A stretch of 64,000 bases of DNA from an uncultured Planctomycetaceae bacterium (GCA_963976765.1 CAXBME010000009.1:124001-188000); one strand, 5' to 3'; numbered from the stretch's first letter, positions 27,363 through 47,538 are shown. Numbers and translations: made by a program. The notes: a model not told the origin generated them from the sequence alone.

Positions 27363-27431
27363 ATGAGTTGTTTCCAGTTGGTCTTTGCAAGTCCAACGTT
27401 CGTCGACTGTCACGGAAACTGGCGAGCCTGC

Positions 27432-28787: not shown

Positions 28788-28817
28788 GCCCCGATTCAAA
28801 GAAAGTCCCCTGACGCC

Positions 28818-30176: not shown

Positions 30177-30463
30177 TCGCTGCTGCATCGGCAGAAAAGC
30201 GTTTGCAACGGAAGCAAAACCAGCAGGACACCGATCCTGATCGCGTTGTTCTTATCGACGAAGCGTGCATTGTTCCAATTCTTAAGAACTCCATTTGGGT
30301 ACTCTCATTACGAATGAGCAACCATCGAATCGGTCGTTCAGCCAGTACACCGGCAGTTCAGAAACCTCTGGCAGGTTGCTGCAACGGGTATCGGATTCGG
30401 CAGATCGAAGTCTCGCTGGATCCGTACTGCACGTTTCTATTCAACTGACTATTGCTGTACCGA

Positions 30464-30712
30464 CTAACTTTGCGGCACGCTGATTTCTGCCAGCAGGTTG
30501 ATTTCTTCCTTTTGAAATCGAGCCTGCCCGCGTTGCAGGATGTCTTCCCAGTCGACTCCACTGCGTTTGCAGATGTGCATGATGTCGGTCACCAGCCAGG
30601 ACATTGCCTCATCAACCGGTTCACCACCAAGCCCCTGTGGTAGCCATGTGTAATGTCTGGATCGAATAATCTCATCGACGTGCTCCAGCCAGTGATCTCG
30701 TTGAACGCTCAT
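30464..30712 (-). CDS. hypothetical protein
   Basis: 82 aa ORF with GGAGG RBS, co-oriented downstream of the CMD gene. Confidence 0.6.
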   Translation of the reverse strand: MSVQRDHWLEHVDEIIRSRHYTWLPQGLGGEPVDEAMSWLVTDIMHICKRSGVDWEDILQRGQARFQKEEINLLAEISVPQS

Positions 30713-30796
30713 CGTTTGTCCTCCTGTCTGAAAAACAAATGGTCTGGAGCAGTCGCCTCAGCAGCAGCTTTCGGTGACTGCGGCGTCATTGTCATT

Positions 30797-31333
30797 CTAT
30801 TTCTGAAACTGCTCGTCCACTGGAGTGTCAATCAGCGCGTTGGTGTAATTACTCAACGTTTTCAACGAGACACCCAGTATGACCTCCAGAGCCGACTGCC
30901 TGGAGTAGCCAGCGTCGATGAATGTCTGCAGCTGATTCTCCGGTACGTTGCCTCGTCGCTCGACAATGGCAATTGTGAATTGTCTCAATGCTTCGAATCT
31001 TCCATCGCTGATCGCTTCGCCAGACGTCAACGCGGCAAGATCCTCGTCAGACAGGCCTGCCTGTTTCGCCAGCGGAGAGTGAGCGGGGATGCAATAGTGG
31101 CACTCGTTAACCGTACTGGCTGTCAGCAGGACGATCTGTTGTTCGAGATCGCTCAGTGATGACTTCGCCAGAAACTCGGTGACCTTGAGATACGTCTCCA
31201 GCACTGCCGGCGCTTCGGCCATCGCTTTAAGTAGATTGGGGACGAACCCGAACTGTTCCTCAGCGGCCTGCATCAATGTTTGAGCTGCTTCAGGAGCAGT
31301 TTCCGTGGCGTGTAATTCGAAACCGTATCTCAT
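30797..31333 (-). CDS. carboxymuconolactone decarboxylase / AhpD-like protein
   Basis: FGFVPNL, E.QIV.L.AS..NECHYCIPAH, KTLSNY.N. Confidence 0.9.
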   Translation of the reverse strand: MRYGFELHATETAPEAAQTLMQAAEEQFGFVPNLLKAMAEAPAVLETYLKVTEFLAKSSLSDLEQQIVLLTASTVNECHYCIPAHSPLAKQAGLSDEDLAALTSGEAISDGRFEALRQFTIAIVERRGNVPENQLQTFIDAGYSRQSALEVILGVSLKTLSNYTNALIDTPVDEQFQK

Positions 31334-31432
31334 GACATTTCTCTTGAAGTGTGAATCTGAGGTGAATTCGCTGGAAGTTCAGGCTGATCGTCAGACCTGT
31401 CTCCTGAAGAGCCAAACCTTCGCGAGCATGTA

Positions 31433-31447
31433 GCGAATCCTGTTCCA
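31433..31447 (-). promoter_or_regulatory. sigma54-like promoter
   Basis: Minus strand TGGAACAGGATTCGC (GG-N10-GC). Confidence 0.45.
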
Positions 31448-31647
31448 CAACCTCCGGGCAACGATGGCAGGCCGACTGAACAGCTTCTGCCAGCAGACGG
31501 GTTCAATAGAAGTTATGCCAGGCCCGAGGGATCCCTCTGATATTTTCCTGGCTGATGACGATTCATTTCGATCCGGTATCGACCAGACAGATTGCTGAAA
31601 AGACAGATGCAGACAGGGCGGTCGAGTATTCAATGCCCAGACAACAC

Positions 31648-31662
31648 CGGCGCGCCGATTGC
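31648..31662 (+). promoter_or_regulatory. sigma54-like promoter
   Basis: CGGCGCGCCGATTGC, ending 52 nt before the ATG at 31714. Confidence 0.5.
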
Positions 31663-31713
31663 TCTCTCAGTAAAACCCCATTCATTCGTCACTTCTTTGA
31701 GAGGAACTCAGCC

Positions 31714-32229
31714 ATGAGCACGACCCCAACCGTGGACTATCCCATCAGGGCTGCTGTCTTTGAAACAACGCTCGGCGCGGCGCGGGCCGTGAAAGATCTG
31801 AGGGCTGCCGGATTCTCGGCCGATCAGATCAGCGTGATCTGCTCGCGTGAGCACGCTCACAAGCACTTTGGAGAATACCGCGAAACGACGACCGGCGAGC
31901 AGACATCTCACACGATCGACCCGTCGGCGGTGGCGGCACTTGGAATCGGAAGAACGGCCTTCGCCTCGGCGGTTGTTCTTTCAGGAGGTAGAGCGTTGAT
32001 CGCACTTGGAGCGTTTGCCAGCGTCACGCTGACAGGGACTCTGGCATCGATTTTCGCATCGCGTGGAGTTGAAAAAGATGCCATCGACTTTCACGAACAG
32101 TCACTTCACGCAGGTGATTTGCTCGTTGCTGTCGAAGGTCACGATGACGACGCTGAACAATGGCTTGATCACGCAGACCAGGTCTTCGCTGACGCCGGCG
32201 CCAAACCACTGTCACTGCCTGAAGGGTAA
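31714..32229 (+). CDS. general stress protein (YflT-like) membrane protein
   Basis: AVF.....A.RAVKDLRAAGFSADQISVI, hydrophobic middle, G.LLVAV; GAGG RBS. Confidence 0.7.
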   Translation: MSTTPTVDYPIRAAVFETTLGAARAVKDLRAAGFSADQISVICSREHAHKHFGEYRETTTGEQTSHTIDPSAVAALGIGRTAFASAVVLSGGRALIALGAFASVTLTGTLASIFASRGVEKDAIDFHEQSLHAGDLLVAVEGHDDDAEQWLDHADQVFADAGAKPLSLPEG

Positions 32230-32265
32230 TCAGCCGGCAGGCCAACTGACGAAACAGATTTTGCC

Positions 32266-32428
32266 ATGGCAGAACATCAGGTCGATCGAACATGAGTCTA
32301 TCCGAGATGTGAGGCTCCCGCTTCAGGAATTTGACCGTGCTGACGAGGCGGACTGGGGGGACCTTCGCGAGCTCACGGAAACCGAGTGGAATCACCTCAC
32401 TGAAATCCTCGACAAGACAGAGCAGTAG
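32266..32428 (+). pseudogene. probable remnant of a W-x10-W coiled-coil stress protein
   Basis: DEADWGDLRELTETEWNHL resembles motifs in the 34799 and 35747 genes. The nearest ATG (32266) is out of frame. Confidence 0.3.
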
Positions 32429-32682
32429 ATTCGCCACGCTGAGGACGAGATAAAACTGCATACCCGATCGATCAAGACGGTCGCTTCTCGAGAAAGCTGG
32501 AACCGACAGCAGTTACAACAGCTCCTGTCACGATTTCCGGCAGACGGTAGTGCTTCGCCAGTTGCAGACTCGATGACTCCAGACGGTCACTGGCCAGCTA
32601 CGTGATGACCGTGCCGGCGCCCAGTACCAGAATGGCGAATAGAACGGTCAACGTTTTCTCCCGCGACGACATCAAAAGAAAG

Positions 32683-32717
32683 AGGCACCGGTGTCTGATA
32701 CCAGAACACCGATGCCT
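32683..32717. terminator. rho-independent terminator (possibly bidirectional)
   Basis: AGGCACCGGTGT..ACACCGATGCCT stem with an A-rich tract on the left and a T-run on the right. Confidence 0.6.
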
Positions 32718-32754
32718 TTTTCGAGATCACTCTTTCTTCGCAAGCAGTTGCTGA

Positions 32755-34692
32755 TTATTTCAACCCGGGAACTGAAGGAATCAATCCGCCAGATTTTCCT
32801 TTCGGTTTGCCACCGCCTCGTTTTCCTCCACTGCTTTTCTTCGGTTTCTGGACGTCAGGGACGGTGGGTTTTGGTGCAGGGTCTACTTTCGGCCGAGGTA
32901 CTGGAGCCGGCTTCGGATCAGGTTTCGGATCCACCTTTGGTTGCGGCTTCGGTTTTGCAACTGGCTTAGTTTTCTGCTCAGTCTTTGGCTGTCCCGGATC
33001 CTTCGTTCCAATCACGGAACCAACTCCGTCAGGAATGACGCCTTTAGTTTTGCTTTTACTATTCCCACTTCCTTTTCTGTCAGTTTCTCCGAGGACTCCT
33101 TTCACAGCGTCTCGAACGGTGTCTTTCACGTTTCCTTTACCACGATTATTTTTCTGGCCATTACCGTTGCCACGATTGTCGTTCGGGCGTTGGTCGACTC
33201 GATTTCCAGGTCGATCGTTGGTAACGCCTGGCAGTTCCGGAATTTTCGAAGGCTTTGCATCAGGTGACTGATTGCCGGGGAGAATTCGGCTAGCTACCTT
33301 CGGAAGCGTGAGCGTTCCTGCTGGTTCGGTTGCTCGCCCCTGCACGTCGACTCGTCCCTGAACTGTTGCCGAATCCCGGTTACTACGGTTACCGGTAGAC
33401 GCACGGCCTCGACCGCGCGACTCGACATCCAAACGCTGGTCAGCCAGTGACAGCAATGCCCCCGCTGTTCTCATCACCGAATCGCGTTCCGAGCGGCTGA
33501 CATCGACAACCCGGCGTCCGAACAGTTCAGAACCGACCGCTCCTGTGATCGCTCGGGCGATATTGACCTGAGCGGCCACTTCTCGATTCGTATTGCGACT
33601 CAAGAACTGGCGCTGAGCATTCAGCGTCCGTCGCGGACGGAAGTCCTGATTTTGAGTGAAGTATGTATTCCATCCTGTCAGACGGTTTCGATAATCAGGT
33701 CCGTGGCGCCACGAATTGTAAGAGTAAATCGGATCGTAGCCAGACCGTGAACCATGCCAGGTGTACCACGGACGGTAAGCATCACGACCGTAGTAGTCTC
33801 CGAAGTAGTAATTGCCCGTTCGATTTCCAACGAACAGGTGTAGCATCAAATGCGGCACGTCAAGCACCGTGCGTGGTGTGTAGTTCGTAATGTGGCGTCC
33901 CTGATAACGGTACGGGGCGTAGATGAGACCTCGTCGATCGATGTCGTAGTCCCAGTAGCCATCGCAATAAACATACCCGTTCGGAGTCCAGTCATAATGA
34001 GCTGGTACCCACACCCAGTCGTGCTGATGAGGTGCCCAGTAGCCCGGTCGCCAGCCGTAATCACGATCGCGATACTCCCAACAGCCGGGAATCCAAAAGT
34101 GGTCATTACTCGGAGCGGCACTCGACGGGCCTCGCTCCTGACTTCGAGGCGGCTCAGGTAGATAGCTCAAAGTCTCTCGCTCGGCACCAATCCATTCACC
34201 CGGTGTCCAGAGAAATCCACCATCAACCTGCGACCAGTATCCGGGAACCCAACGACGTCCCGGCGGCACGTCGCGCCATAGTCCACTTATCCAGAGAAAC
34301 TCATCTTCCGCGTCTTCGAAACTCCAGTAACCGGGAATCCAGATGACGTTGTCACCATCCGGTCGATATTCCGGCGGGACTTCTTCGATCGGTCTGGGCG
34401 GCTCTCTCTTGATGGCGGACTGACGGACCGGATCGTGGCTGACTGGTCTCGCAAAAGCTTCATGCAGAGGCCCCCACAGTGCGACATCATCTTCGACGGA
34501 AGCCTCCGCTGAAGCTGACGCGCGTTGTTCGTTTGATTGCTGTTCCTGAGTCCGGGTTTCTGCCTGCGCGTTCAACTGTCCCGATGCCGACGCTCCGTCT
34601 GACGGAGGAGCTGGCGGTGGTGGCGGCGCAGCGATTAACGGAGTCGTTGCTAACGCGCCGAACAACGCCAGAGATTTGATTCGAATATCCAT
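32755..34692 (-). CDS. YXWGXW (WXXGXW) repeat secreted protein with Pro/Lys-rich tail
   Basis: Signal peptide; WIPGYW, WISGLW, WVPGYW, WTPGEW, WIPGCW, WRPGYW, WVPAHY repeats; AGGAG RBS. Confidence 0.85.
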   Translation of the reverse strand: MDIRIKSLALFGALATTPLIAAPPPPPAPPSDGASASGQLNAQAETRTQEQQSNEQRASASAEASVEDDVALWGPLHEAFARPVSHDPVRQSAIKREPPRPIEEVPPEYRPDGDNVIWIPGYWSFEDAEDEFLWISGLWRDVPPGRRWVPGYWSQVDGGFLWTPGEWIGAERETLSYLPEPPRSQERGPSSAAPSNDHFWIPGCWEYRDRDYGWRPGYWAPHQHDWVWVPAHYDWTPNGYVYCDGYWDYDIDRRGLIYAPYRYQGRHITNYTPRTVLDVPHLMLHLFVGNRTGNYYFGDYYGRDAYRPWYTWHGSRSGYDPIYSYNSWRHGPDYRNRLTGWNTYFTQNQDFRPRRTLNAQRQFLSRNTNREVAAQVNIARAITGAVGSELFGRRVVDVSRSERDSVMRTAGALLSLADQRLDVESRGRGRASTGNRSNRDSATVQGRVDVQGRATEPAGTLTLPKVASRILPGNQSPDAKPSKIPELPGVTNDRPGNRVDQRPNDNRGNGNGQKNNRGKGNVKDTVRDAVKGVLGETDRKGSGNSKSKTKGVIPDGVGSVIGTKDPGQPKTEQKTKPVAKPKPQPKVDPKPDPKPAPVPRPKVDPAPKPTVPDVQKPKKSSGGKRGGGKPKGKSGGLIPSVPGLK

Positions 34693-34798
34693 CGTAAAAA
34701 CTCCTGAGTGAGATACGGGCGGCTTAAATCCTGTCTCGTCCTGACATAGCGTGCTGGCTGCGGCAGGAGTCCTGATCAAAAGATGCACTCGCCAATGG

Positions 34799-35254
34799 TC
34801 ACTTCTTCAACGTGCTCGCTTCGTTTGAGCATTGCCCACTGGCAGCCATCGATGGAGATGTAGCTGTGGTCTTCCCATCTGTCGTGAAGCTGCTGCACAC
34901 TGCGTCTGAAACATCGCAGGCTTCGTTGTCGTCGTCCGAGTAGTTGTCCTTGAATTCGTCGTACGCCTCGCTGCATGTCGTTCGCAGATCTTCCCAGGCA
35001 TTCTCCATGCCTTCCCGAAATTTCTCCCACGCGTCTGCGCTGTCGTCGGAAAACTGGCTGGCCTTATGACTTCCTGCAGCCGCTCGTTCTTTCAGCGTTT
35101 TAACTTTCTCGCGGAACGTTTTCGCAGCGGCGTCTCTGGCTTCCAGCGTGCGGAACTTTGCATTCAGCGTCTTCAACTCAAGATCGGACATCTCCTGCTC
35201 AAGCTGTCCGTAACGCTTCTGCAGTTCTTCCTTCGCGGTTCTTATGATCGACAT
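34799..35254 (-). CDS. coiled-coil stress-type protein (Sll1863-like)
   Basis: GGAGG RBS; coiled coil ending in DAWEKFREGMENAWEDL. Confidence 0.65.
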   Translation of the reverse strand: MSIIRTAKEELQKRYGQLEQEMSDLELKTLNAKFRTLEARDAAAKTFREKVKTLKERAAAGSHKASQFSDDSADAWEKFREGMENAWEDLRTTCSEAYDEFKDNYSDDDNEACDVSDAVCSSFTTDGKTTATSPSMAASGQCSNEASTLKK

Positions 35255-35352
35255 GGCATCCTCCGTTGAGTCTCTGCATTGACTGAAGCCGCCTCACGCT
35301 GGCAACTCACCAGCCGCGGCCTGTTGAGTTAGTGAATCGAAAGAACCGGTTC

Positions 35353-35367
35353 GCAATGCGTGTGCCG
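35353..35367 (-). promoter_or_regulatory. sigma54 -24/-12 promoter
   Basis: Minus strand CGGCACACGCATTGC. Confidence 0.7.
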
Positions 35368-35627
35368 AAAGTCTCCGACGAACTGATACATACTGGGAAC
35401 GCATGACCTGCGACTGAATGTCGGTTGGCGACCGATCAGGCCGCGTTCTGTGCGGCCAGACTGGCAATGTTTCGTACAACGGATTTGCTGATCGCGTTGA
35501 TCGTCCAATTCCATCTTCTCCGCGAAGACCCCGGCGCTGAGTCGTGAGAAACGCCACTCAAGCCCGCAAAATTTAAGTCCATGAGCTAATTGCTTATTTC
35601 ATGTGTGCAGGTCGTCGAAACGCCCTT

Positions 35628-35642
35628 TGGCACACAGTTCGC
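35628..35642 (+). promoter_or_regulatory. sigma54 -24/-12 promoter
   Basis: TGGCACACAGTTCGC, preceded by an AT-rich tract. Confidence 0.65.
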
Positions 35643-35746
35643 TCCATCAACGACCCAGCAAACACCGTTGCGAGCCTGTTCAGGACTGCGTTCGAAACTG
35701 GCTCGTGAGTTCCCACCTGATCCTGCGATTTCGGAGGAGAATCATC

Positions 35747-36319
35747 GTGAAATCACTTAGTGCGAAGCTCATTGCCGGAGTTCTGGTTGCTCTGACTGCT
35801 GGCCTGTCCGGTTGCGGAGATGCTCTGCCGCCAGCATCGATTCCAAATCCAAACTCGACCATTCCAACCACTGAAGAGAAGGCGACAACTGACGAGGAGT
35901 CGATCACCTCAACTGACGTCGAACGTGAAGTGGACGAGGCTGTCGACGCGGCATCCAGGTACGCAGGACAGACGAAAGATGAGTATCAGGCATCAATGCA
36001 GAAAAAGCTGGACGAACTCGATGCAAAGATCGACGAGTTGCAGACCAGAACGGCTGCCGCTTCGAAAGAAGCAAAGGAAGATGCAAAACGCGAGTACGAA
36101 AAGGCAATGGCCACACTGAAAGAGAAGCGTCAGGCCATGTCTGACAAATTTACTGAGATTCAAGAAGCTTCCGGAGACGCGTGGCGAGACATTGCCAACG
36201 GCGCAGATGCTGCCTGGGATGATCTGAGCGCGGCCTTCAGTTCCGCCATGAGCCGGTTTGAAAACGCGGAACAGGAAGCAGAGATCCGCGACCCGGACAT
36301 CGGGAAATCCAAAGGGTAA
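35747..36319 (+). CDS. lipoprotein with Sll1863-like coiled coil
   Basis: GGAGGAG RBS, GTG start, lipobox LSGC, ASGDAWRDIANGADAAWDDL. Confidence 0.75.
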   Translation: MKSLSAKLIAGVLVALTAGLSGCGDALPPASIPNPNSTIPTTEEKATTDEESITSTDVEREVDEAVDAASRYAGQTKDEYQASMQKKLDELDAKIDELQTRTAAASKEAKEDAKREYEKAMATLKEKRQAMSDKFTEIQEASGDAWRDIANGADAAWDDLSAAFSSAMSRFENAEQEAEIRDPDIGKSKG

Positions 36320-36376
36320 TCAGATCAGTGGATCATCCAAAGCTGGTCGCCTGCCTGAAGAAGGAGCAAGTCAGCC

Positions 36377-36778
36377 ATGAAGATTTCAATCATCGCTATC
36401 TTCGGCGGAGCTGCCATGGCCGGAATCCTGACCATGCACAACCCCGCCTCGTCAGAAGTTACCGACCAGCGTTTCGCAACAGACAGCCCTGCCATCGTCG
36501 ACCCCGACGACGTCCCGGACATCGATCCGGATGTTGAAGTTGCGCAAGCTATCGAGGTCAGCGGAACTGTTCTGGACGTCGGCGCAGCATCCATCGTTAT
36601 CAACGGAGCAGGAGTAACACCGGTAACGATCGCCGTTCCGCCAACTGCTGAGATTATTCGTGACGGCCAGAAAGCCGAACTGTCCGATCTCATGCCCGGC
36701 GACCTCGCCGATGTCGACGCCGTCCGTAAAAACGGCAAACTAACTGCCACCACCGTGGATGCCCACACGCTCCTTTGA
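36377..36778 (+). CDS. secreted hypothetical protein (OB-fold/DUF5666-like)
   Basis: AAGGAG RBS, signal-like N-terminus, G.V..V...I.RDG...LSDL.PGD..V pattern. Confidence 0.65.
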   Translation: MKISIIAIFGGAAMAGILTMHNPASSEVTDQRFATDSPAIVDPDDVPDIDPDVEVAQAIEVSGTVLDVGAASIVINGAGVTPVTIAVPPTAEIIRDGQKAELSDLMPGDLADVDAVRKNGKLTATTVDAHTLL

Positions 36779-37265
36779 TGCCGGAAACATCTTCCGGTGC
36801 ATCAATGCAATGGCTCTTCGAACCGCGGTTCGGACGCTGGTGCCAAGAGATTCGGCGGCACGAGGCGGTTGCCCTGAAAGTGCTTCAGGGCCTGTTGGAT
36901 GGCTTCTCGTTCGACGTTGTCGAGAGTTGCGTCTCGTGGAAGTTCCAGTTCGGGCTCTTCAGTTAAACACGGAAGACGGTCCTTTTAGATTTCGGATCAT
37001 TGACTTCATCCGTCTGACTTCCGTCACGATATTCCCTGACTGTCTCTCCGCAAAACTCGGTTCAATTCGCCACTAAGCCGGGCAATTCAAGTCAGAACAC
37101 AAAGCCCGTTCGTCGATGTAAACTTTTTGCTGTCGACAAACTTTCAAATCAAAGACAACACGCGACATGGAATGCGCGTTTTTCGATGAATTCGCAGCGG
37201 GATTCGACATACCTGCCCATAGGGACTCGAAATCACATTCCGATACTGAATGCACCCTCAAGCGT

Positions 37266-37310
37266 TTCAAACTCTGTGTCTCGTAGACTCAAGGTTTGTG
37301 TCTCCCACCA
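37266..37310 (-). mobile_element. Tn7-like transposon end of a sequence extending leftward (two TnsB-site repeats)
   Basis: Minus strand begins TGGTGGGAGACA at 37310. 17-bp repeats at 37288-37304 and 37266-37282, 22 bp apart. Confidence 0.75.
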
Positions 37311-37315
37311 ACAGA

Positions 37316-37446
37316 TGGTGGGAGACATAAAGGTTGAAACGCGGCGCGTTACTCCGAAAGGACTTACGTCGACGCGAGACACAAACCCTGCAACGGTTGA
37401 GACACAAAGTTTGAGCTGTTCCGCTATTTGAGACACAAAGTTTGAG
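37316..37446 (+). mobile_element. Tn7-like transposon end of the element extending rightward (four TnsB-site repeats)
   Basis: TGGTGGGAGACA at 37316. GAGACACAAAGTTTGAG-type repeats at 37322, 37376, 37399 and 37430. The 8-bp terminus followed by GACA matches Tn7 geometry (TGTGGGCG-GACA). Confidence 0.8.
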
Positions 37447-37498: not shown

Positions 37499-38572
37499 TC
37501 ACGTGTAAGTGAGTGCGAGTTCGGATTCTGAAATTTCGCAGGTCACTGATACCGCATTCGTAAGTTCATTGCCTTGGGGCTCCAAGGCATCCGCTGGCTG
37601 GGGCGGGGCTTTTGGAGTCGCCCATGACAGAGCAAACAACGGACTCCTGGTTGCACGGATTACAGCTTCCTGATGCTCTCTTTGTCGGCGTTCGGTGCGG
37701 ATGGACTGCTGAAGTACCGCGAGTTGCTGCCGATCACGCGGATCATGTTTTCTTTGAGATTGGCCAATTTCCCGGTCAATGCGGTATTGATATCGTTCTT
37801 CAGCGAATTCGGCTCGGCGTTCTGCGAGCGAGTGTTCTCGGAGGTCTTGTTCGCATCGATGGCGAAATTTTTCGCGCTCGAATTCAAGCCGCTGTTTGGA
37901 TTGTTCGTAGTCGAGAAGCATACCGGTGAATTTCGCAGATTGAGCCGGGTCGACAATTGGCATGTCCATGGCTGCTCGCGATTTAAGATGCAGCGACTGT
38001 TCAAGTGACTGAAGTCTCGCAGTTTCATCGTTGAAGTTCGGCCCGGTGGACGAGGCCAGGACGGATGCAACTATCGGTCCGCCCGAATATGCCGTTGCGT
38101 ATCGAGCCGCCTGCTCAAACCTGCCGGCACTACGCTCCGGGGCCATAACTTGAGCATCGATCCATGAGCTGGCATTGCGATTTTCTTCGATATCAAAGAA
38201 CAACTCGCGTGTGAGTCGAACAACCTCGATATCAATGGCCGTCTGTTCGACGATCGATTTATCACTGCTGCCACCGAGCACGAGAATGATGAATGATTCT
38301 CGAAGCGGGCTCGTCAGCCAGAAAGATTCCGATGTTGCAACTAACCGATGTCGTTCTGACGCGATCTCTGGACCAGACTCCATACAGGCTGCAAGGAAAC
38401 GCACCGCTGCATGGACGCTCTCATCAGCAATCTTGCGCATCCAACGAAGTGGGGCTTCCTGAATTGCAGTCGCAAGACGCCAACGCCATGCAGGGCCATT
38501 GAGAGTTCTATGCAGCGACCGGGCCTGCTCCACGCCTGCTTCGTCAGACAATCCACTCGGTGACATGGTCAC
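37499..38572 (-). CDS. hypothetical protein
   Basis: 357 aa, GAGGTG RBS, PAWRW..ELFFD..WI..AYSGGP, C-terminal coiled coil. Confidence 0.75.
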   Translation of the reverse strand: MTMSPSGLSDEAGVEQARSLHRTLNGPAWRWRLATAIQEAPLRWMRKIADESVHAAVRFLAACMESGPEIASERHRLVATSESFWLTSPLRESFIILVLGGSSDKSIVEQTAIDIEVVRLTRELFFDIEENRNASSWIDAQVMAPERSAGRFEQAARYATAYSGGPIVASVLASSTGPNFNDETARLQSLEQSLHLKSRAAMDMPIVDPAQSAKFTGMLLDYEQSKQRLEFEREKFRHRCEQDLREHSLAERRAEFAEERYQYRIDREIGQSQRKHDPRDRQQLAVLQQSIRTERRQREHQEAVIRATRSPLFALSWATPKAPPQPADALEPQGNELTNAVSVTCEISESELALTYT

Positions 38573-38592
38573 GTTTCACCTCTTGTGATGAT

Positions 38593-39048
38593 TTACTTCA
38601 TTGCCTCAGAGACATTCGTCTGCGGACGAGCCGACTGCCAGCCACGGATTTCAGCTCCCTGAATCCGCAGCCCGACAGCCGCCAGTTGATCGTGAAGTTG
38701 TCGCCGCGTCTTTCTGAGTTCTGACCGGACCGCTTTCCGACACTCGGATATAGATTCCTGTCGACGAAGTTCCTGCTGCACAAGTTGCAGTGTCTCTCGT
38801 ACCAGTGACACTCCAGCCTGATCACTTCCGAGATAGATCGATCTCTGTTTACTGCCAGACCGATAGACCAGCCGATAGTAAGGCCCCAGTCGGCGGCCTT
38901 TGTAAGACCGCCAGGATTCCTGGACGCTGCCTTGATGGCTGAAAACATCAGCCTGTTGGCGAATCAGACTGACGGCATCGATTATTTTTTGGTCAACAGA
39001 TTCGAGTTTTTCCAGGATCTCTTCGTCGGCTGAATGCGGCATGTTCAT
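38593..39048 (-). CDS. putative DNA-binding protein (GPYY..YR..KQRSIYLG motif)
   Basis: Beta-hairpin motif followed by a coiled coil; ATGA overlap with the upstream gene; paralogous to the N-terminus of the 40579 ORF. Confidence 0.7.
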   Translation of the reverse strand: MNMPHSADEEILEKLESVDQKIIDAVSLIRQQADVFSHQGSVQESWRSYKGRRLGPYYRLVYRSGSKQRSIYLGSDQAGVSLVRETLQLVQQELRRQESISECRKAVRSELRKTRRQLHDQLAAVGLRIQGAEIRGWQSARPQTNVSEAMK

Positions 39049-39497
39049 TCCGCTCCCGAAAATTCACGCTGGATCGGATCATATCCTCCCGGAAGAACTC
39101 CGTGCCGTTCACGGAAATCCTGCAGACGGACCCAGAACGCACTTGCCTTACCCTTGGCAGCAACAACTCTCAACAGTCGCGACACTTTAGTGTCTCTCTC
39201 CTGACGTGAATCGGGACTGCTATCTGTGTGCAGAAAGTCGCGACCGATTTCGAACATTTCAAGGACTTCGAGCCACAGCAACTGGACGATGGTGACGCCG
39301 GTCGATTGTTCAATTCCGGGCTTAGCGCGAAGCACGAGTTCCTCATAGGCAGGATTCACGAGTGCCAGAATGCCCGTTCGTAAATCCGATGGCAAGCTGT
39401 CAAAGTCGACGCCCTCGGGCATCCAGTACGGTCGAATTGCCGCTGGCCCTGCGGCATGATTTGTTTTCGTGTCCATGTCTTCTTGTTCCTGAATCAT
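39045..39497 (-). CDS. hypothetical protein
   Basis: 150 aa ORF in a tightly coupled minus-strand operon. Confidence 0.7.
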   Translation of the reverse strand: MIQEQEDMDTKTNHAAGPAAIRPYWMPEGVDFDSLPSDLRTGILALVNPAYEELVLRAKPGIEQSTGVTIVQLLWLEVLEMFEIGRDFLHTDSSPDSRQERDTKVSRLLRVVAAKGKASAFWVRLQDFRERHGVLPGGYDPIQREFSGAE

Positions 39498-40579
39498 GAA
39501 ATTGAAGTTCGTGCAGCAACGGAGACATCTGGTGGGGCTCGGCGTCCCCCCACGTCTGTGTCTGCCTGCACGGGTATCAGATTGCTGTTTCTTCGGAATG
39601 GCCGGTTGAAGTGCCCCACTGCATAGCTGAAACCGCTCGCGTCACTTAACCGGTGCGCTGGCTTGCAGCTTCGCCCAGTCGAACGTCCAGGCGTGCAAGA
39701 CGTTCGGTCATCTGAACGGTTTTCAGATAAACCTGGAGACCCGGCATGAGGGTTCGCAGCCGGTCCGAACGTCCGGCATCGACTTCCAGGCTGTCGTCGA
39801 TCGCCAGTTTCAGATCGTGACACATTTCGAGAAGATCGCTTGCAACAGGACCGAGGCACGCTCGAAGCGAGTCGGGTGAATCGAGCGATGCCTCCAGGTG
39901 TTTCTGGATTCGAGCTTTTCTCTTCTCGGCCAACTGGTTGCCTCCGACCGTTTGTTGGCTGATCGGTGGCATTGGTCCTTCGGATGGCAGAATTGCCTGA
40001 TCTCTGTTCGTACTGTCCGTCGTCATTCTCTTTTCCCTCCGTGTCGATGAATCCGCCGGTCATGACGCTCGTGCCGGCACGTTTCAAATTAACTTCGTCA
40101 GAATCAACACCAGGCATCGATGCCTGGTGTTGTCGAATCTCAGCACCATGAAAGTGGTAGCCAAGTACCTCAAGAATCGGACTCAACTGCTGACGCGACT
40201 CACGCAGCAACTCTTTCGCTCGCAACATGAGCCGATTCAGTTTCCGCCACGCCTCTGTCCGTTTTTGCAACTGTTTGAGTTCTTGCTGGGCCTGTGCAGC
40301 ACGTTTGGATGACTTTCCCAGTCCTCGGACGACCTGGCAGCCGTCCCTGCGAAAACGCAGTTTGAAGTATGTTCCGGAAGGTCGGATTTCGGCCGATACG
40401 AATCCCTGCCGTGATAACGACTCCAGGTCGGACTCTGTCAGATTCAAGGACGCAAGCAGCGGAAATGCGTGTAGAGCCCGTTGCGATCGGCATGATCCGA
40501 ACGGTAGCGAACAATCCGGAGATCCACAGATTCTGCTACTGCTGCAAGAGCACTGAGAGGTTTCGGCAATACTTAACAT
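39494..40579 (-). CDS. putative DNA-binding protein; only the first ~150 aa look genuine, the tail reads through the next gene
   Basis: SRQGFV..GTYFKLRFRRDGCQVVRGLG...GYHFHGAEIR aligns with the 38593 gene. The start overlaps the stop of the 40573 gene. Confidence 0.55.
   Translation of the reverse strand: MLSIAETSQCSCSSSRICGSPDCSLPFGSCRSQRALHAFPLLASLNLTESDLESLSRQGFVSAEIRPSGTYFKLRFRRDGCQVVRGLGKSSKRAAQAQQELKQLQKRTEAWRKLNRLMLRAKELLRESRQQLSPILEVLGYHFHGAEIRQHQASMPGVDSDEVNLKRAGTSVMTGGFIDTEGKENDDGQYEQRSGNSAIRRTNATDQPTNGRRQPVGREEKSSNPETPGGIARFTRLASSVPRSCCKRSSRNVSRSETGDRRQPGSRCRTFGPAANPHAGSPGLSENRSDDRTSCTPGRSTGRSCKPAHRLSDASGFSYAVGHFNRPFRRNSNLIPVQADTDVGGRRAPPDVSVAARTSIS
39646..40026 (-). CDS. hypothetical helical protein
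   Basis: GGAGG upstream of ATG 40026; protein-like composition; nested in another frame of the 361-aa ORF. Confidence 0.7.
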   Translation of the reverse strand: MTTDSTNRDQAILPSEGPMPPISQQTVGGNQLAEKRKARIQKHLEASLDSPDSLRACLGPVASDLLEMCHDLKLAIDDSLEVDAGRSDRLRTLMPGLQVYLKTVQMTERLARLDVRLGEAASQRTG

Positions 40580-41793
40580 GGTCGTGAAAACTCCCGATAA
40601 ACTTGCAGAATCTGACCGACAAGCAGCTGCAGATTGCGTGCGTCACCAAAATCTGGCTGCCGTTCACGCCGGCGCCCCTCGATCACCCAGCGTGCCTCCC
40701 GGACAACTCTGCTTTCGGCATGACAACGCGTCATCAATTCAGCGACATTGATGAGCAACGCGCTGCGCAGAGGGTCTCGATCACTCGTGGCCGCATCACG
40801 AATGCGCTGGATGACCTCCTGGTCGTAGAGTAGATTCAGTCGGTCGAGTTTCGCCGTCAGCGATCGCTCCTGACCTCTCACCGACTCTGCGCGGCGAAGA
40901 TCAGTAGTGATTTCATGCCTCACTTCCGCGTAGTTACCCGGTGCTCCCGATACCGTAGGCGGCGCGGCTGCTGGGCACACGGAATCAGCGATGCTTTGGC
41001 GAAGGAATCGACGAACGAGGTCTTTGTCCTGCAGATCCACCGCCGTGCGAATTTCGTTCAGGTCACTTGAAGCGGGCTGCCAGGCAAACATCAAATCTGT
41101 GTCAAAACCAAGGACGGAATCCGCTCGATAGATCAACCGGCGAATCGAAACCATCTCTTCAGATACTTCATTCCTGATCGATGATAGATTCCAGCCGGCA
41201 AGAACGATTTGAGTCGGGTTTCGGGCTATATCCGCTCGTTGTTTTCCTCCCGGTTCACCGCTGCGAATTTCTGCTGGGCGTCCAAACAACAACCGCAGTT
41301 GAGGGCCTTTCATGGCAGCAAGGCCAGCGGCCAACGTAGCAGGAATTCCAAGCGTCCGAAGAACTGCCAGATCGCTTAAGCTGAACGCAGCGACAACCTT
41401 TTTCCTCAGCGAAATTGACGCCGACTTTGTCGTCGAGTCGCTCAATGCCCTGAACACCGCTGGCTCTTGAGAAACTGGCAGAACACCATTGGCCATCACC
41501 AGTTCGAGCGGCAAGTCGACGCTTTCATCGAATGATGCCGCGAATTGAGCCTCTGACCTGTTCAAAAGCGGATGAAGGTCTACGTTTTCACCCACTCGGA
41601 CACACACGCCCGACTGAATTAAGGTTGCGACATCAAATTCACTGTGAAGCGCATCACGAAGATCAGCGGGATCGCATGTCAGACGTCTGACGCTCGAATC
41701 AGCACCGAGAAACTCCCAGCATACAGGAAGTGAAAGAGGCTCGGTCTGAGCAAATACGAATTGGAGAACTGATTCGATAGCCAAGTCGTCCAT
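40573..41793 (-). CDS. degenerate DnaG/TOPRIM-like protein
   Basis: L..EFDVATLIQSGV and KVVAAFSLSDLAVLRTLGIPATLAAGL..QIVLAGW resemble the DnaG core, but the catalytic Glu and DxD are absent. GGAAGG RBS. Confidence 0.5.
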   Translation of the reverse strand: MDDLAIESVLQFVFAQTEPLSLPVCWEFLGADSSVRRLTCDPADLRDALHSEFDVATLIQSGVCVRVGENVDLHPLLNRSEAQFAASFDESVDLPLELVMANGVLPVSQEPAVFRALSDSTTKSASISLRKKVVAAFSLSDLAVLRTLGIPATLAAGLAAMKGPQLRLLFGRPAEIRSGEPGGKQRADIARNPTQIVLAGWNLSSIRNEVSEEMVSIRRLIYRADSVLGFDTDLMFAWQPASSDLNEIRTAVDLQDKDLVRRFLRQSIADSVCPAAAPPTVSGAPGNYAEVRHEITTDLRRAESVRGQERSLTAKLDRLNLLYDQEVIQRIRDAATSDRDPLRSALLINVAELMTRCHAESRVVREARWVIEGRRRERQPDFGDARNLQLLVGQILQVYREFSRPC

Positions 41794-42837: not shown

Positions 42838-43710
42838 ATGAAACGATTGCGGAAGAAGTGCGCGCCGATTGAGAATGCGTCCGACTTTTCAGAGTCGTCG
42901 CCGGCGGCCTCGCGCGCCGCGTGGACTGGTTGTCTCAGGATTGGAGCCATCATCGCGCACGTGCGTGCTTATCCATCCGCGAAGGATGATGATGGACCTG
43001 AACTGCACCAGTTTCACCGAGGCTGCGGTAAGCGGATTCAGTGTCCCCGGATGTGCCCGAAGCACGGAACTCTCGCCAGTGAAGATATCGTCAAAGGCAT
43101 TGAGTCCGCGAATGGAAAACCGATTCTTATGGATGAAGACTCTCTGCGACGTCTTCGTCCGCCAAAGGATGAAGAACTTGTACTCGAACGATTCGTCGCT
43201 GCGGCAGACATTGATCCAGTGATGTATTCGGGCCGGCACCTCTACATAGCCCCGGCTTCGAAAGTGGCTGCCGCGCCGTTTGGCTTGATGGCCGGGACTC
43301 TCTCCAGACTCGGGAAGCTGGGAGTCGGACAACTCACCGTAAACGGACGAAAGAGTCTGGTTGCCGTGATGACTCGGGCTCAGCGATTGACGCTTCATTT
43401 TCTCCATTACCCAGGACAGATTCGCTCAGTCCCAGCCTTCGATGTGGTGACTGAGGATGCGAGCTTCGGTGCGCCGCTGGTTGAACAGTTTGTCAACGAG
43501 CGAAACAGCCACGTTGACTGGTCGGGCTATCAGGACCCTGTCCCTGGAATCGTGGACGAACTGATCAACACCCACAGCTCAACGCGTCGAGGTCGGCGAA
43601 AGTCGACACCACGGGCGACCGCCACCAAGTCGGACAAGTGCAACCCGACGAAGGCGACTACCTCAAGTCTGACCGGCAGGAAGTCGTCTGTTCGTAGAAA
43701 CAGCCGATGA
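42838..43710 (+). CDS. ku: Ku DNA end-binding protein
   Basis: RAAWTGCLRIG, LHQFH..CGKRI...MC, EDIVKG.E, ERFV...DIDP.MY, LHFLHYP.QIR, YQD, basic tail. GAAGGAG RBS before ATG 42838. Confidence 0.85.
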   Translation: MKRLRKKCAPIENASDFSESSPAASRAAWTGCLRIGAIIAHVRAYPSAKDDDGPELHQFHRGCGKRIQCPRMCPKHGTLASEDIVKGIESANGKPILMDEDSLRRLRPPKDEELVLERFVAAADIDPVMYSGRHLYIAPASKVAAAPFGLMAGTLSRLGKLGVGQLTVNGRKSLVAVMTRAQRLTLHFLHYPGQIRSVPAFDVVTEDASFGAPLVEQFVNERNSHVDWSGYQDPVPGIVDELINTHSSTRRGRRKSTPRATATKSDKCNPTKATTSSLTGRKSSVRRNSR

Positions 43711-44531
43711 AAGAAACGTCTCCACCCACTCCCGCGTTATCCCTGACGCCATCAACCTTTCGCCTGAGACGAAGAACACCAGGCTCTTTTCTGCTGATTC
43801 CATCGGTCCGTGAAGGACGTTGCATTCGCTGTCAGGGACAACTTGAAGGAAAGGCCGCACTGATTTTGGCCGCATGCCCATCCGTGACGTTGCTGCAGGA
43901 GCAACCAGGCCAAATCTGGTACGAATGGGATACGACTTCCAACGATGTGATCCGACTCTTTGACGAACCTCAACGGTTGAGTCGCCGTAAGTGTCGCCTG
44001 CGAACCAGCTACATCGTTCCCGACTTTCTTGTCGAAACTCGACGGCACAAACGACTGATTGAAGTCAAACCATCCAGGCGGCTGCACAAACCGGACACTG
44101 TGCGCAAGCTTTCGGTCGCTCGACTCTATGCGCAACAGAACGAAATGACATTTCACGTCCTGACTGAGCGGCATCTGTCGCGTCAGCCTCTGCTGGACAA
44201 CGTCCGACAGCTCAGTCGCTACTCCAGATTTGAATCCGACCACTGTCTCGTGAGGGCAATCATCGACGGCGTTTCCCGTGATGGAACGTCGACCCGCCAG
44301 TTGGTGACACAACTTGATCAGCCTGATTCAGTCCTGACGTGGCACATCCTCTTCCTGCTGGCAACCCACGAGGTAAGCACCGACCTGATTCAGCACTCGT
44401 TGAATACTGACTATCACCTCTATCCGAAAGGAGTTCTTGAATGGGATCCGTTCGAATCAGTGTGGGCACCGAATGGCTCGCTGACGGACGGGTCTGGCGA
44501 GTTGTTCGACAACCCAGCCCTGAAGTGCTGA
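43707..44531 (+). CDS. tnsA: TnsA-like endonuclease
   Basis: LE, EQP..I.Y, YIVPDFLV, LIEVKP, F.VLTE motifs (PD-(D/E)xK); C-terminal wHTH. Confidence 0.85.
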   Translation: MKETSPPTPALSLTPSTFRLRRRTPGSFLLIPSVREGRCIRCQGQLEGKAALILAACPSVTLLQEQPGQIWYEWDTTSNDVIRLFDEPQRLSRRKCRLRTSYIVPDFLVETRRHKRLIEVKPSRRLHKPDTVRKLSVARLYAQQNEMTFHVLTERHLSRQPLLDNVRQLSRYSRFESDHCLVRAIIDGVSRDGTSTRQLVTQLDQPDSVLTWHILFLLATHEVSTDLIQHSLNTDYHLYPKGVLEWDPFESVWAPNGSLTDGSGELFDNPALKC

Positions 44532-46480
44532 TCGCCAAGGAACACAAATCAGCCACGGAAATGGAATTGCATCTCGATGAAGTCCTTCGTGAATTCACGA
44601 GCGGGAGACTGAGTCTTCTCGACACCACTCCAGACAGCTCGACGAGCGTGGTGTCCAGAACCCGCGACATTCGTGATCTTCCGGTGAAACAGCGTGAGAT
44701 TGTGGAACAGCGCTGGAACATGATCGAGCCCCTTACAACGATGGAATGCAGTCCGACCAATACAGACTTTGAAGTCAGGGCCACGCAACTGCGGCAGGAA
44801 GGAATCAACACGTCCCGAGCATCACTCCGACGATACTACTCGGCATGGAAGGATTCAGGTGGAGATCCACGAGCAATTACTCCCCGCCTGGGACGATGCG
44901 GAGGACGTGGCCGGTCGCGACGGGACAGTCAACTGGCTCAGTATCCAATGCTCAATCGATTCGTTGAGAACAGCATCCGTGATGTCTATCTCACCACGGC
45001 ACGGCGTCCAATCTCAGCGGCGGTCCGACGAGTTCTGGAAGACGTTCAGCGACTGAATTCACGATTGCCTTCGGACAAAGCGTTACCGGTTCCACGGGAG
45101 CGGTCACTCTCTCGGGCCATTGCTCGAAGGATCGAGCGGATGGATCCGTGGGAAGTCGACCGGCAGCGGTGGGGAAAGCGGATCGCTGATCAACGACACG
45201 CGCCTCGGACTCCCCAGTCCATGGCTCGCCGGATTCTGGAGCGGGTCGAGGTCGACCATTCGCCGCTGAAGGTTGTCGTTGGCACGCAGGCCGGTCCGAT
45301 TGGGCAACCGTGGCTGACCGTACTGATTGACTACTACAGCCGGATGATTGTCGGCTTCTGTCTCGGGTTTGATCCGCCCTCGTACGCTGTGCTGATGGAA
45401 TCCTTACGCCACTCCATTCTCCCAAAGACTGAGGCCGCCTCAACTTATCCATCAGTAAAAGGCAGCTGGCCGTGTTTCGGAATTCCCGAGATGATCGTTT
45501 GTGACCGGGGAACGGACCTGACAAGTAACGATCTGGAAAATGCCGCGTTTCAACTGGGCATCGTGCTCGACTTCAACCCGCCGCGCACGCCGCATATGAA
45601 GGGATGCGTCGAATCATTCTTTGGAGGACTGAACGACCAGTTGATCTCTGCACTGCCGGGGCGAACATTTCGCAGCTGGGAGAAACGGGCCGACTACAAC
45701 GCTGACGACGGGCCGTTGCTGCCCTATGAATCGCTGCTGGAAATCATCCACGTCTATCTCATCGACGTCTACGCCCTGTCGAAACATCCGACCATTCCAC
45801 AGACCCGACTTGAGGTTTGGCAGGACAGTGCCGCCGAGTATCCGCCGTTTTTGCCGGGTTCGCCAGAAGACCTCGTCGTGCTGCTGTCGAAGCGGGCCGA
45901 GCGGACACTTTCGACACGCGGCATCGAACTCGGTGGCATGTTCTATATCAGCGACGATCTGATGGCACTACGCGCCGATCTCGCAGCAAACAATCTCAGC
46001 TCAGACCGCATGACGGTGCGGTACAACCCCTGGAACCTTGGCTCGATCCGTGTGCTGAATCCAATTGACGGTTCGTACATTCGCGCGAACGCTGTGGATG
46101 AGACTCTCGAAGGAATGACGGAGTTTCAGTGGAAAGTTCTGAAGCGTGCAGTGAGGGAGCGATTCGATTCGCCGGATTACCAGATGTCACTGGCCGAGGG
46201 TCGGAACGTCATCCGTGACATCGCCGAAACCACAATGAAGAAACCGTCGAAACGAAGGCGAACGAAGGCCGCCCGTTTTCTGGGCGAATCGCGTTCGGCC
46301 AACATGGATGATACGACTGCTACCTCTCAGATCGTCGCGGCTTCGTCAGCATCAGACACTGCCAGCAAAATTCTAACCAAGCCGGACGCTGTGACTTCAC
46401 AGCCTGCCGACGCCGACACGGATTGCGAATTTGATGACCTTGATCTCGACAACTGGGAGGTTGATACGACCAGCACCTGA
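44441..46480 (+). CDS. tnsB: TnsB/TniA DDE transposase
   Basis: VEVDHS (D), PWLTVLIDYYSR, IVCDRG (D), KGCVESFF (E), Mu-type C-terminus VRYNPWNLG. AGGAG RBS. Confidence 0.92.
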   Translation: MGSVRISVGTEWLADGRVWRVVRQPSPEVLIAKEHKSATEMELHLDEVLREFTSGRLSLLDTTPDSSTSVVSRTRDIRDLPVKQREIVEQRWNMIEPLTTMECSPTNTDFEVRATQLRQEGINTSRASLRRYYSAWKDSGGDPRAITPRLGRCGGRGRSRRDSQLAQYPMLNRFVENSIRDVYLTTARRPISAAVRRVLEDVQRLNSRLPSDKALPVPRERSLSRAIARRIERMDPWEVDRQRWGKRIADQRHAPRTPQSMARRILERVEVDHSPLKVVVGTQAGPIGQPWLTVLIDYYSRMIVGFCLGFDPPSYAVLMESLRHSILPKTEAASTYPSVKGSWPCFGIPEMIVCDRGTDLTSNDLENAAFQLGIVLDFNPPRTPHMKGCVESFFGGLNDQLISALPGRTFRSWEKRADYNADDGPLLPYESLLEIIHVYLIDVYALSKHPTIPQTRLEVWQDSAAEYPPFLPGSPEDLVVLLSKRAERTLSTRGIELGGMFYISDDLMALRADLAANNLSSDRMTVRYNPWNLGSIRVLNPIDGSYIRANAVDETLEGMTEFQWKVLKRAVRERFDSPDYQMSLAEGRNVIRDIAETTMKKPSKRRRTKAARFLGESRSANMDDTTATSQIVAASSASDTASKILTKPDAVTSQPADADTDCEFDDLDLDNWEVDTTST

Positions 46481-46506: not shown

Positions 46507-47538
46507 ATGGCCACATCGCCTGACCGAAAGAAATGGAAGACGATGGCGGCTGAGGATCGGATCGCCGCCGTCAATACGCTGCTGGTGCTGCATCCGCGCT
46601 TCCGAGATGCGGTCGATCTCCTGAAACGCTGCCACGAAGACAGTCGGCGATCTGCAGAGCCAGTCTGCGGAGCATTGCTCGGAGCCTCGGGTGTCGGCAA
46701 GACCACGGTGATTGACCACTACCGGCGGTCATTCCCGGTGGAAGAAACCGAAACTGCCACGCTTCAACGCGTACTGAAAGTGACACTCCAACCCAATGCG
46801 AAGCCGAAAGGCATTGCTGCCGACATTCTTTTCGCATTGCGGGACCCGGCATGGAGTTCCGGCACGGTCCAGACGCTGACCAACCGCGCGGTTCACCTCC
46901 TTGAACACTGCGGCGTTGAACTGATCATTCTCGATGAGTTCCACCACCTGTTCGATTCCGAACGTTCGCGCGTAATGACTCAGGCCGCTCAGTGGCTGAA
47001 AGTGCTGATCGTCAACACGCGAATTCCGGTGGTCGTGTCGGGGATGCCGGAAGCGACCTACGTGCTCAATGCGGAACACACAGAACGTCGCTTCAAGGAT
47101 CGGCTGACATTCCGTTGTTTCAACTGGCGGACTCAGCCGGGGCGGCGTGAATTCTGCGGGATGCTCAAGAAACTGGACGACACCATTCCACTGGCGAAGG
47201 TATCCGGGCTGGCGGTACCGGACCTGGCGGGTCGTATCTATTTGGCCTGCCGAGGGATTCCCGACTACCTCATGACCCTGATTCGCGGTGCGGTTTGCGA
47301 AGCGATTGAACGCGGTGCTGAAGCGATCGAGATGTCCGACCTGGCACGCGTCTACGAGTCTCGACTGACTCACCAGCGCATTATCTCAGAACAAGACAAC
47401 CCGTTTATTGGCAGTCTTGACCAAAGTGCACTGGATCGTGTCCAGCCAGCCGATGGCGTGCGCGTCGCTACCACTGGACTGACTCCTCGCGCCGCGCATC
47501 GCAGGAAGCGCGAGCTTCAGGCGGCTGACGTTCTCTGA
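46507..47538 (+). CDS. tnsC: TnsC/TniB AAA+ ATPase
   Basis: HPRF, Walker A GASGVGKT, Walker B LIILDEFHHL, PVVVSG, ERRF. Confidence 0.92.
   Translation: MATSPDRKKWKTMAAEDRIAAVNTLLVLHPRFRDAVDLLKRCHEDSRRSAEPVCGALLGASGVGKTTVIDHYRRSFPVEETETATLQRVLKVTLQPNAKPKGIAADILFALRDPAWSSGTVQTLTNRAVHLLEHCGVELIILDEFHHLFDSERSRVMTQAAQWLKVLIVNTRIPVVVSGMPEATYVLNAEHTERRFKDRLTFRCFNWRTQPGRREFCGMLKKLDDTIPLAKVSGLAVPDLAGRIYLACRGIPDYLMTLIRGAVCEAIERGAEAIEMSDLARVYESRLTHQRIISEQDNPFIGSLDQSALDRVQPADGVRVATTGLTPRAAHRRKRELQAADVL

Follow-up and report, generated by a model that had tools for sequence, protein, structure and literature searches.

A junction of two Tn7-like transposon ends in a planctomycete genome, most likely formed by tandem insertion downstream of gyrB

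How do two transposon-like ends come to face each other across five base pairs? This question was raised by a 64-kb stretch of an uncultured planctomycete genome (CAXBME010000009.1:124001-188000). We refer to the whole stretch as the window and count positions from its first nucleotide; it lies on contig C9 of a draft genome of 8.57 Mb in 95 contigs (G000). The junction reads TGTCTCCCACCA (37299-37310), ACAGA (37311-37315) and TGGTGGGAGACA (37316-37327). In a repeat search, the inverted repeat around ACAGA grew to 22 nt per arm, with the arms 86% complementary and 5 nt between them.

An earlier note on this DNA had described two Tn7-like ends joined across exactly 5 bp, with identical 12-bp termini up to 37310 and from 37316 and with 17-bp sites on either side, a closely spaced pair on the left and four at wider intervals on the right. 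This layout was recovered as claimed. The exact terminal 12-mer occurs within the window only at 37299-37310 and 37316-37327; at up to two mismatches it was found five times against 4.96 expected, a count close to chance, so only the exact pair is meaningful. The 17-mer GAGACACAAAGTTTGAG had five matches in the 64-kb window at up to three mismatches, all within 37266-37446, against a shuffle expectation of 0.19 (five matches in 0 of 100 shuffles), and a sixth, weaker 17-bp site, GAGACACAAACCCTGCA, lies at 37376. With all six sites placed, the array is unique in the window: two minus-strand sites 22 bp apart on the left arm (37266-37282 and 37288-37304) and four plus-strand sites on the right arm (37322, 37376, 37399 and 37430, with spacings of 54, 23 and 31 bp). 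The termini, read as TGGTGG...CCACCA, are indeed TGG rather than the usual TGT, as the note had it, with the terminal TG...CA retained.

The exact 12-mer occurs three times in G000, the third copy being on contig C31, and a motif-cluster scan of all 95 contigs located site clusters only at the window junction and at C31:62157-62222. The genome thus holds three end clusters in total, two of an R type with tight sites and one of an L type with spaced sites. The ends are asymmetric with several putative TnsB sites each: four over 131 bp in L, three in the R end on C31 and two at 21-22 bp in the left arm of the junction (R'), which on the minus strand aligns with the C31 R end minus its first site. 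The C31 end points rightwards; it starts at 62157 with TGGTGGGAGACA, and its three sites lie 21-22 bp apart. Its terminus lies 10 bp past the stop of gyrB (835 aa, following dnaN), and the 5 bp before it (62152-62156) are TCTGT, the reverse complement of ACAGA. The earlier note had proposed to search the replicon for an outer end flanked by ACAGA, and this TCTGT-flanked third end is what such a search returned; in sharing the pentamer next to gyrB, it supports the note's suggestion of tandem insertion at one attachment (att) site.

We consider it very probable that the inverted repeat is the L end of one element (E2) abutting the R end of an older element without tns genes (E1), and that it arose most likely by insertion of E2 into the 5-bp target of E1 downstream of gyrB. 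The parts of the junction are then as follows.

37266-37304, minus strand: two predicted TnsB-type 17-bp sites of R', matching sites 2 and 3 of the three-site C31 R end, spacing included
37299-37310, minus strand: R' terminus TGGTGGGAGACA (sequence reading and 12-mer search)
37311-37315, no strand: ACAGA, target pentamer of the gyrB att site, between E2 L and E1 R' (reverse complement TCTGT at C31:62152-62156)
37316-37446, plus strand: L end of E2, terminus TGGTGGGAGACA and four sites (from the array and from metagenome L ends)

Two other parses of this stretch were dropped. A TGT terminus (TGTTGGTGG...) suits R and R', misfits the L end and leaves 2 bp between the ends; reading the 12-bp palindrome as a hairpin or terminator adds nothing beyond the end structure.

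We measured the distance to the R terminus from the conserved gyrB motif GA.TTCATCGA.AA.CAC. It was 40 nt in G000, G007, G031 and G033, 41 nt in G004, G034 and the metagenome locus L184, and 42 nt in G005; in G032, which has a different site type, 41 nt were counted by eye. Insertion was therefore at a fixed distance and orientation-specific (R terminus at +40 to +42) in eight genomes or loci, with G032 added by eye, and the distance held down to 57% TnsB identity. The gyrB site was empty in G003 and G014 and carried decayed R remains in G001 and G002. Between the empty site of G003 and the occupied one of G005, the flank is shared as far as the insertion point. These comparisons point to the 3' end of gyrB as the att site of a planctomycete Tn7-like family. 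A separate parE-like gene is present in G000 on contig C34. A second site type (TCTACAyAA vs. GAGACAyAA; terminus TGGTGTTCTACA) was observed at L067:900-953, after gyrB in G032 (L195) and in the flank of L133; R ends with this type belong to a sister lineage, which inserts at the gyrB att site as well.

To the right of the L end, the window carries the following genes.

37499-41793, minus strand: five co-oriented open reading frames (ORFs; 357, 151, 150, 361 and 406 aa), conserved in place in locus L067 at 42-75% amino acid identity
41900-42544, plus strand: HTH_3 regulator, 214 aa (Pfam), with homologues in G004 and L067
42793-43710, plus strand: Ku homologue, 305 aa (Pfam Ku, 4.7e-24)
43707-44531, plus strand: tnsA (PF08722, 4.2e-11, 43.7 bits, cut-off 26.5; NF033179 weak)
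44441-46480, plus strand: tnsB (PF09299, 9.1e-8, passing its cut-off; PF00665, 25.3 bits and so short of the 32.6-bit cut-off)
46507-47538, plus strand: tnsC (PF05621, TniB, 2.4e-27; PF13401, AAA_22, 1.1e-16)
47539-49557, plus strand: tniQ/tnsD-like gene, 672 aa (PF06527, 7e-17; HTH_17 and MerR_1 in the C-terminal half)
49678-54005, plus strand: accessory module after tniQ, encoding proteins of 200 aa, 231 aa, 497 aa (an IetA-like AAA+ ATPase) and 319 aa (Pfam, PADLOC, NCBIfam)
55003-63663, no strand assigned: conflict-system-like cargo with JAB-like, E1/ThiF, PfkB, CARF6, ORC-CDC6-like and PRTase-CE proteins (Pfam, PADLOC)

The TnsA, TnsB, TnsC and TniQ genes, located 6.4-12.2 kb rightwards of the L end, form the only tnsA-tnsB-tnsC-tniQ set in the 8.57 Mb and 95 contigs of G000, with tnsB and tniQ in single copy. 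From its Pfam domains and full-length homologues, TnsB is predicted to be an rve and Mu-transposase C protein. Full-length Tns homologues were detected in eight loci at 57-97% amino acid identity (L066 and L068 repeat stretches of G006 and G004 and were counted once), and in a contig search all eight TnsB-homologue loci came from Planctomycetes. G000 itself encodes DUF1559 proteins, a family typical of this phylum. The five ORFs beside the L end had no convincing family in Pfam, PADLOC or NCBIfam, with one weak DUF1678 hit. The four-gene accessory module is complete and co-linear in G004 and L071, and three of its four proteins are kept in each of L070 and L073; the G006 contig stops within the AAA gene of the module. 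Paralogues of the module occur elsewhere in G000 (C33, C80, C27 and C5) at 64-72% nucleotide identity.

The Ku homologue scored 85.8 bits with Pfam Ku (cut-off 25) and 141.3 bits with the NCBIfam equivalog TIGR02772 (cut-off 150). Its stop overlaps the start codon of tnsA, and a Ku gene lies just upstream of tnsA in all eight assessable loci (the window, L055, L066, L067 and L070-L073; L069 begins inside tnsA and was left out), down to 57% TnsB identity. Possibly the Ku homologue is a component of the transposition core and acts, e.g., in repairing the donor break. In G031, gyrB, an R end and Ku-tnsA-tnsB-tnsC-tniQ are found on one contig, with the operon 13-20 kb from the R terminus and pointing toward R, the same orientation as inferred for G000. 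From this single-contig layout, the tns genes are located at the L-end side in the gyrB-targeting family. The L end of the G031 element was found neither in C5:26001-61537 of that genome nor elsewhere in it, and a repeat search of L070 and L073 for element ends gave nothing usable.

The DNA to the left of the junction was compared with congeners, and it comprises three features.

27363-28787, plus strand: histidine kinase (Pfam), conserved in congeners
28818-30176, plus strand: sigma-54 response regulator (Pfam), conserved in congeners
30186-37310, minus strand: E1, a 7.1-kb remnant bounded by R' at 37310, with seven ORFs and without tns genes

Positions 18001-30185 of the window have long matches in congeners. 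In G002, the closest of these (gyrB 98% identical at the amino acid level), the sequence L023:1-466 equals window 29720-30185 at 89%, and homology stops at 30185, the 3' end of the response-regulator gene; in that genome, the gyrB stop is followed by about 0.9 kb and then by this homologue of window 29720-30185. Positions 30186-37150 had no match in G001, G002, G003 or G005, and in G004 E1 had only patchy 68-75% matches on one contig (G004:C581). With the flank conserved up to 30185 and E1 absent from four of the congeners, the 7.1 kb directly left of the junction are a remnant, by these comparisons probably that of an older Tn7-like element abutting conserved chromosome at about 30185. The idea in the earlier note that DNA to the left belongs to another element therefore holds for about 7.1 kb (30186-37310) and fails beyond, where relatives share the chromosome. 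None of the seven ORFs of E1 had a convincing family in Pfam, PADLOC or NCBIfam, their matches being limited to a weak ZorA-like hit and a sll1863-family domain. The far end of E1 (L') was not found with the 17-mer, the 12-mer or the core motif in the window or in all 95 contigs, and no site-like motif was seen near its outer edge (30186-30720), where 30100-30720 was also inspected by eye. The outer TCTGT copy of E1 was not found either; the pentamer is seen twice, not three times.

The reading as tandem insertion builds on direct observations (how the ends are built, which tns genes are present, the third end with its pentamer, the synteny of the gyrB flank and the constant 40-42 nt), and the following mechanism is proposed. 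The 672-aa TniQ, with its TnsD-like HTH in the C-terminal half, is predicted to recognise the conserved final ~70 nt of the coding sequence of gyrB. Bound there, it would recruit TnsC, after which TnsA and TnsB would insert the element 40 nt beyond, with the tight R end toward gyrB and the spaced L end away. Because the insertion position is fixed, a second insertion would take the pentamer of the resident again. The expected order is gyrB-TCTGT-[R..E2..L]-TCTGT-[R'..E1]-response regulator, which on the plus strand of the window would appear as R'-ACAGA-L. The shared pentamer denotes a common att position and need not stem from one insertion event: any fixed-position insertion re-uses it, so TCTGT alone does not tie the C31 R end to the window L end. 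With three ends and one tns set in the genome, the C31 R end is by parsimony most likely the partner of the window L end. The sites of E2 and of E1 R' share their sequence type, and target immunity should have discouraged the insertion of E2; as read from the sequence, tandem sites of one type suggest that immunity was weak or bypassed.

Junctions of the same type were detected in relatives and metagenomes. In G004, a three-site R' is followed by AAC and an L end, and then by HTH-Ku-tnsABC-tniQ. In L067, an R' of the other site type is followed by ACTT and then L. Contigs from the sequencing runs X3 (depth ~134) and X5 align from 37316 rightwards and have R-like termini 3-4 bp before that point; on another contig of X3, an R end comes after gyrB. 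By these sequences, the R'-L junction is natural and recurrent. The spacer is 3 bp in G004 and 3-4 bp in L067, X3 and X5, vs. 5 bp in G000. A plain 5-bp duplication does not explain spacers of 3-4 bp, which require that the target was offset by 1-2 bp into the terminus of the resident or that bases were lost later; in G004, both sides would fit a 4-bp target shifted by one base into the resident terminus. A pattern scan of metagenomes yielded 118 loci, 17 of them with a second site-like match, and seven of these 17 were real ends by eye (L087, L092 and the identical L115, L128, L160, L133 and L184); the remaining loci were dropped as chance 16-mer matches. In the L ends L087, L092/L115, L128 and L160, the interior is shared and the flanks diverge exactly at TGGTGG outward. 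As these other L ends have unrelated flanks, abutment to R' is not part of the L end itself.

Three other explanations of the locus were weighed. That the repeats are not transposon ends at all, and form a palindromic operator or iteron array for a local regulator such as an HTH protein, is the least probable and barely conceivable. Short oriented intergenic repeats with a divergent HTH gene about 4.5 kb away would suit such an array, but the same termini and sites bound the R end 40-42 nt after gyrB in eight genomes, L-end homology ceases exactly at TGGTGG, and tnsABC-tniQ is present wherever the L end was found (G000, G004 and L067). Slightly less remote, and still very improbable, is the junction of an excised, circularised element, which the earlier note had offered as its alternative, or a chimeric assembly join of two ends. 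Abutting ends with a spacer the size of a target-site duplication are what a circularised element should have. Coverage is low (~4x) in the two best-covering runs, X1 and X2: a 191-nt X1 contig spans 37151-37341 with zero differences and only 26-31 nt on the L side, and X2 is without a contig over 37263-37415. X1 is gapped elsewhere, and such holes are not evidence; the two runs may also be the source samples of the assembly, in which case their agreement is not independent. Against a circle or chimera, the junction lies within a linear 252-kb contig with core genes on one side and conserved chromosome 7 kb leftwards, and its arms are different end versions, the left R-like with two sites and its own gyrB look-alike (described below), the right L-like. 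The same junction type also occurs in G004, L067, X3 and X5 with different R' types. Moreover, excision of the Tn7 type by TnsA and TnsB yields linear fragments. Taken together, the data fit tandem insertion, not a circle junction or an assembly artefact.

The extent of E2 leaves somewhat more room for an account in three events, which we consider unlikely. Here, the C31 R end would come from a third element, E3; the R end of E2 and the L end of E3 would have been lost, e.g., through recombination between related cargo or a large rearrangement; and the block between gyrB and the window L end would be a fused or rearranged island instead of one transposon. A contiguous E2 would measure at least 130 kb and probably more than 200 kb, very large for a Tn7-like element, and the re-use of the pentamer by any insertion at the gyrB att site leaves R and L untied. 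Overlaps of 55 nt between contig ends lead both C31+ and C60+ into C68- and C68- into C50- or C62-; C9+ and C60- share a suffix and have no successor, and the path from C31 to C9 stays ambiguous. C68 is an exact repeat of 10.5 kb, present in two copies, that carries CusB-like metal-efflux genes and is continued by 6.9 kb of 85%-identical paralogues (C50:25325-32159 and C62:6706-13632); that the R side and the L side both enter this repeat in the same direction, and then the paralogues, favours three events. So does the interval C9:230.7-236.8 kb, where 6 kb of the C9:228-248 kb segment match one G005 contig at 79-83%. Against this, the genome holds only three ends and one tns set, and the orientation of the tns genes relative to gyrB agrees with the single-contig element of G031. 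The sampled interiors are also missing from congeners: beyond the end region, nothing in five congeners corresponds to C31:62.1-91 kb, and C9:188-208 kb has no counterpart save short repeats and 66-72% paralogue-level hits. The draft assembly is compatible with either one giant element or a fused or rearranged island.

One further feature of the window is located in the interior of an R end.

37148-37232, minus strand: look-alike of the gyrB 3' end in E1 R' (BLAST to the gyrB 3' ends of relatives, motif scan and anchored alignment)

Its motif GAATTCATCGAAAAACGC (37176-37193) begins 117 nt from where the R' terminus starts. BLAST and the motif scan placed the two copies of G000 at window 37174-37232 and C31:62257-62313; both R ends of this genome contain one, with the motif starting 117-139 nt after the terminus start; overall, the look-alike lies ~100-140 nt inside R ends of the E1/E2 lineage. 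The distant R end of G031 is without one. In an anchored alignment of nine native and 10 look-alike gyrB sites, the core G.GT..T.ATGGG..A..A..TCGA.CC..G..G.GA.TTCATCGA.AA.C..G...TCGAC.T was present in at least 17 of the 19 rows. GyrB residues are lost in the look-alikes; for example, two arginine codons are replaced by TGCGGT. Eight of 12 look-alikes are followed by a further R terminus at +39 to +41 (five in G007, G004:C181, L184 and, with a decayed terminus, G034); the other four are not (two in G000, G004:C590 and G033).

The most extensive stack was seen in G007 (L025), where six R termini stand in a row after the gyrB stop. R ends 1-5 each have three sites and a look-alike, with the next terminus 39-41 nt past the motif, and the R types vary in the outer half of the sites. 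The types in order are 1, 2, 2', 1', 5 and a truncated sixth. This order suggests that duplication within the stack took place besides separate insertions. Use of the look-alike as a secondary att site by later insertions is likely, if more tentatively so than the junction itself. An insertion there would leave the resident R end ahead of the newcomer, which would then be nested inside the resident. One possible route by which stacks lost their element bodies is excision of the DNA between an inner R end and an outer L end. The fuller proposal, to which we give somewhat less than an even chance, is that R ends carry a working att copy, that residents serve as landing pads and are stacked or nested beside gyrB, that rows of R ends are the fossils of this process, and that Ku acts in the transposition core, e.g., in sealing the donor break.

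Among known systems, Tn7 of E. coli uses TnsABC and TnsD to insert at attTn7 downstream of glmS. The gyrB-targeting family resembles it in the predicted heteromeric TnsA/TnsB transposase, AAA+ TnsC and TniQ-domain selector with a DNA-binding extension; in a selector proposed to read the 3' coding end of an essential gene, with insertion at a fixed distance beyond; in the tight-site end toward the gene and the spaced-site end away; and in the 5-bp target pentamer and terminal TG...CA. It differs in the target (gyrB, not glmS), the termini (TGG, not TGT), a tns operon at the L-end side transcribed toward R, a Ku gene before tnsA, the lack of tnsE, R ends with an att look-alike, and a resident end of the same type that did not stop a second insertion. 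We regard the family as a variant of the Tn7 kind, set off by its gyrB att site, R-end look-alikes and stacks, Ku in the operon and tns genes at the L side. Of these, the gyrB att site, the look-alikes inside R ends and the L-side position of the tns genes had escaped the earlier note. Integrase-driven islands at tRNA and tmRNA genes restore their att site and accumulate as tandem arrays. By analogy, not membership, they share a resident that carries a copy of the target and gives rise to arrays beside one conserved gene; they differ in their tyrosine recombinase chemistry and in that the copy there repairs the target gene, whereas gyrB here is uninterrupted.

According to the relevant parts of PMC11014353, parE is a known att site of Tn7-like elements in Acinetobacter and other gammaproteobacteria. 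As parE is a gyrB paralogue, both groups use an att site downstream of a type II topoisomerase B-subunit gene; they differ in the host phylum and in the target, which here is gyrB (835 aa, next to dnaN). The parE-targeting elements are described with a TniQ of ~486 aa and a second TniQ of ~170 aa (PMC11014353), compared with one 672-aa TniQ here. For Tn6022/AbaR elements in comM, the same parts of that paper report second elements nested in or proximal to residents, read from 5-bp duplications, and strong target immunity measured for Tn6022 (PMC11014353). The likeness lies in a natural second element in or next to a resident and in islands that grow by repeated insertion; Tn6022 differs in that it inserts inside comM and needs TnsF, and in that those parts describe no att copy within an end (PMC11014353). 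In their main texts, neither Faure 2023 (PMC10293859) nor Benler 2021 (PMC8649781) mentions gyrB or gyrase, and the main text of Benler 2021, in which one planctomycete host species is listed, contains no NHEJ or Ku term. A full-text literature search did not find gyrB as a Tn7-like att site in the portions of text it returned, where one paper used the gene for phylogeny only, or a Ku homologue together with Tn7-like elements.

Tandem Tn7-like insertion at an att site is a known route of island building. Explained in this way, the junction is nothing unusual: a site-specific transposon that returns to an att site already occupied will normally leave one behind. Less ordinary are the 3' end of gyrB as an att site, the att look-alike in R ends and Ku as the first gene of the tns operon, all of which bear on how site-specific transposons compete for or share a single safe site. 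If the look-alike is a self-renewing landing site, it would explain nesting, cargo swaps and stacked ends, and one has to ask how such elements escape target immunity.

Some minor observations concern the cargo of the block. The content of C31:62.1-91 kb includes an IrrE-like gene, a sigma factor, a type II CBASS and a V-type ATPase operon. The CBASS (SAVED, SMODS cyclase, E1/E2-like ThiF protein and JAB) occupies C31:64645-69700 (L019:12645-17700), 2.5 kb inside the R end, and is preceded by the IrrE/M78-like and sigma-70-like genes. The CARF6 protein at 55003-63663 of the window was identified with a PADLOC value of 8e-101. Genes for resistance to copper, mercury and other metals abound in the right part of C9, C60 and C68, where inverted duplications are also frequent, and inverted paralogous MerR-MerT-hydroxylase-LysR blocks are found at the right end of C9 and the start of C60. 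A 95-bp sequence at C9:196401-196496 (L058:8401-8496) has at least 40 copies among the matches listed for G001 and G004 together, at 72-89% identity, and two to three copies each in G002, G003 and G005; it resembles a dispersed short repeat.
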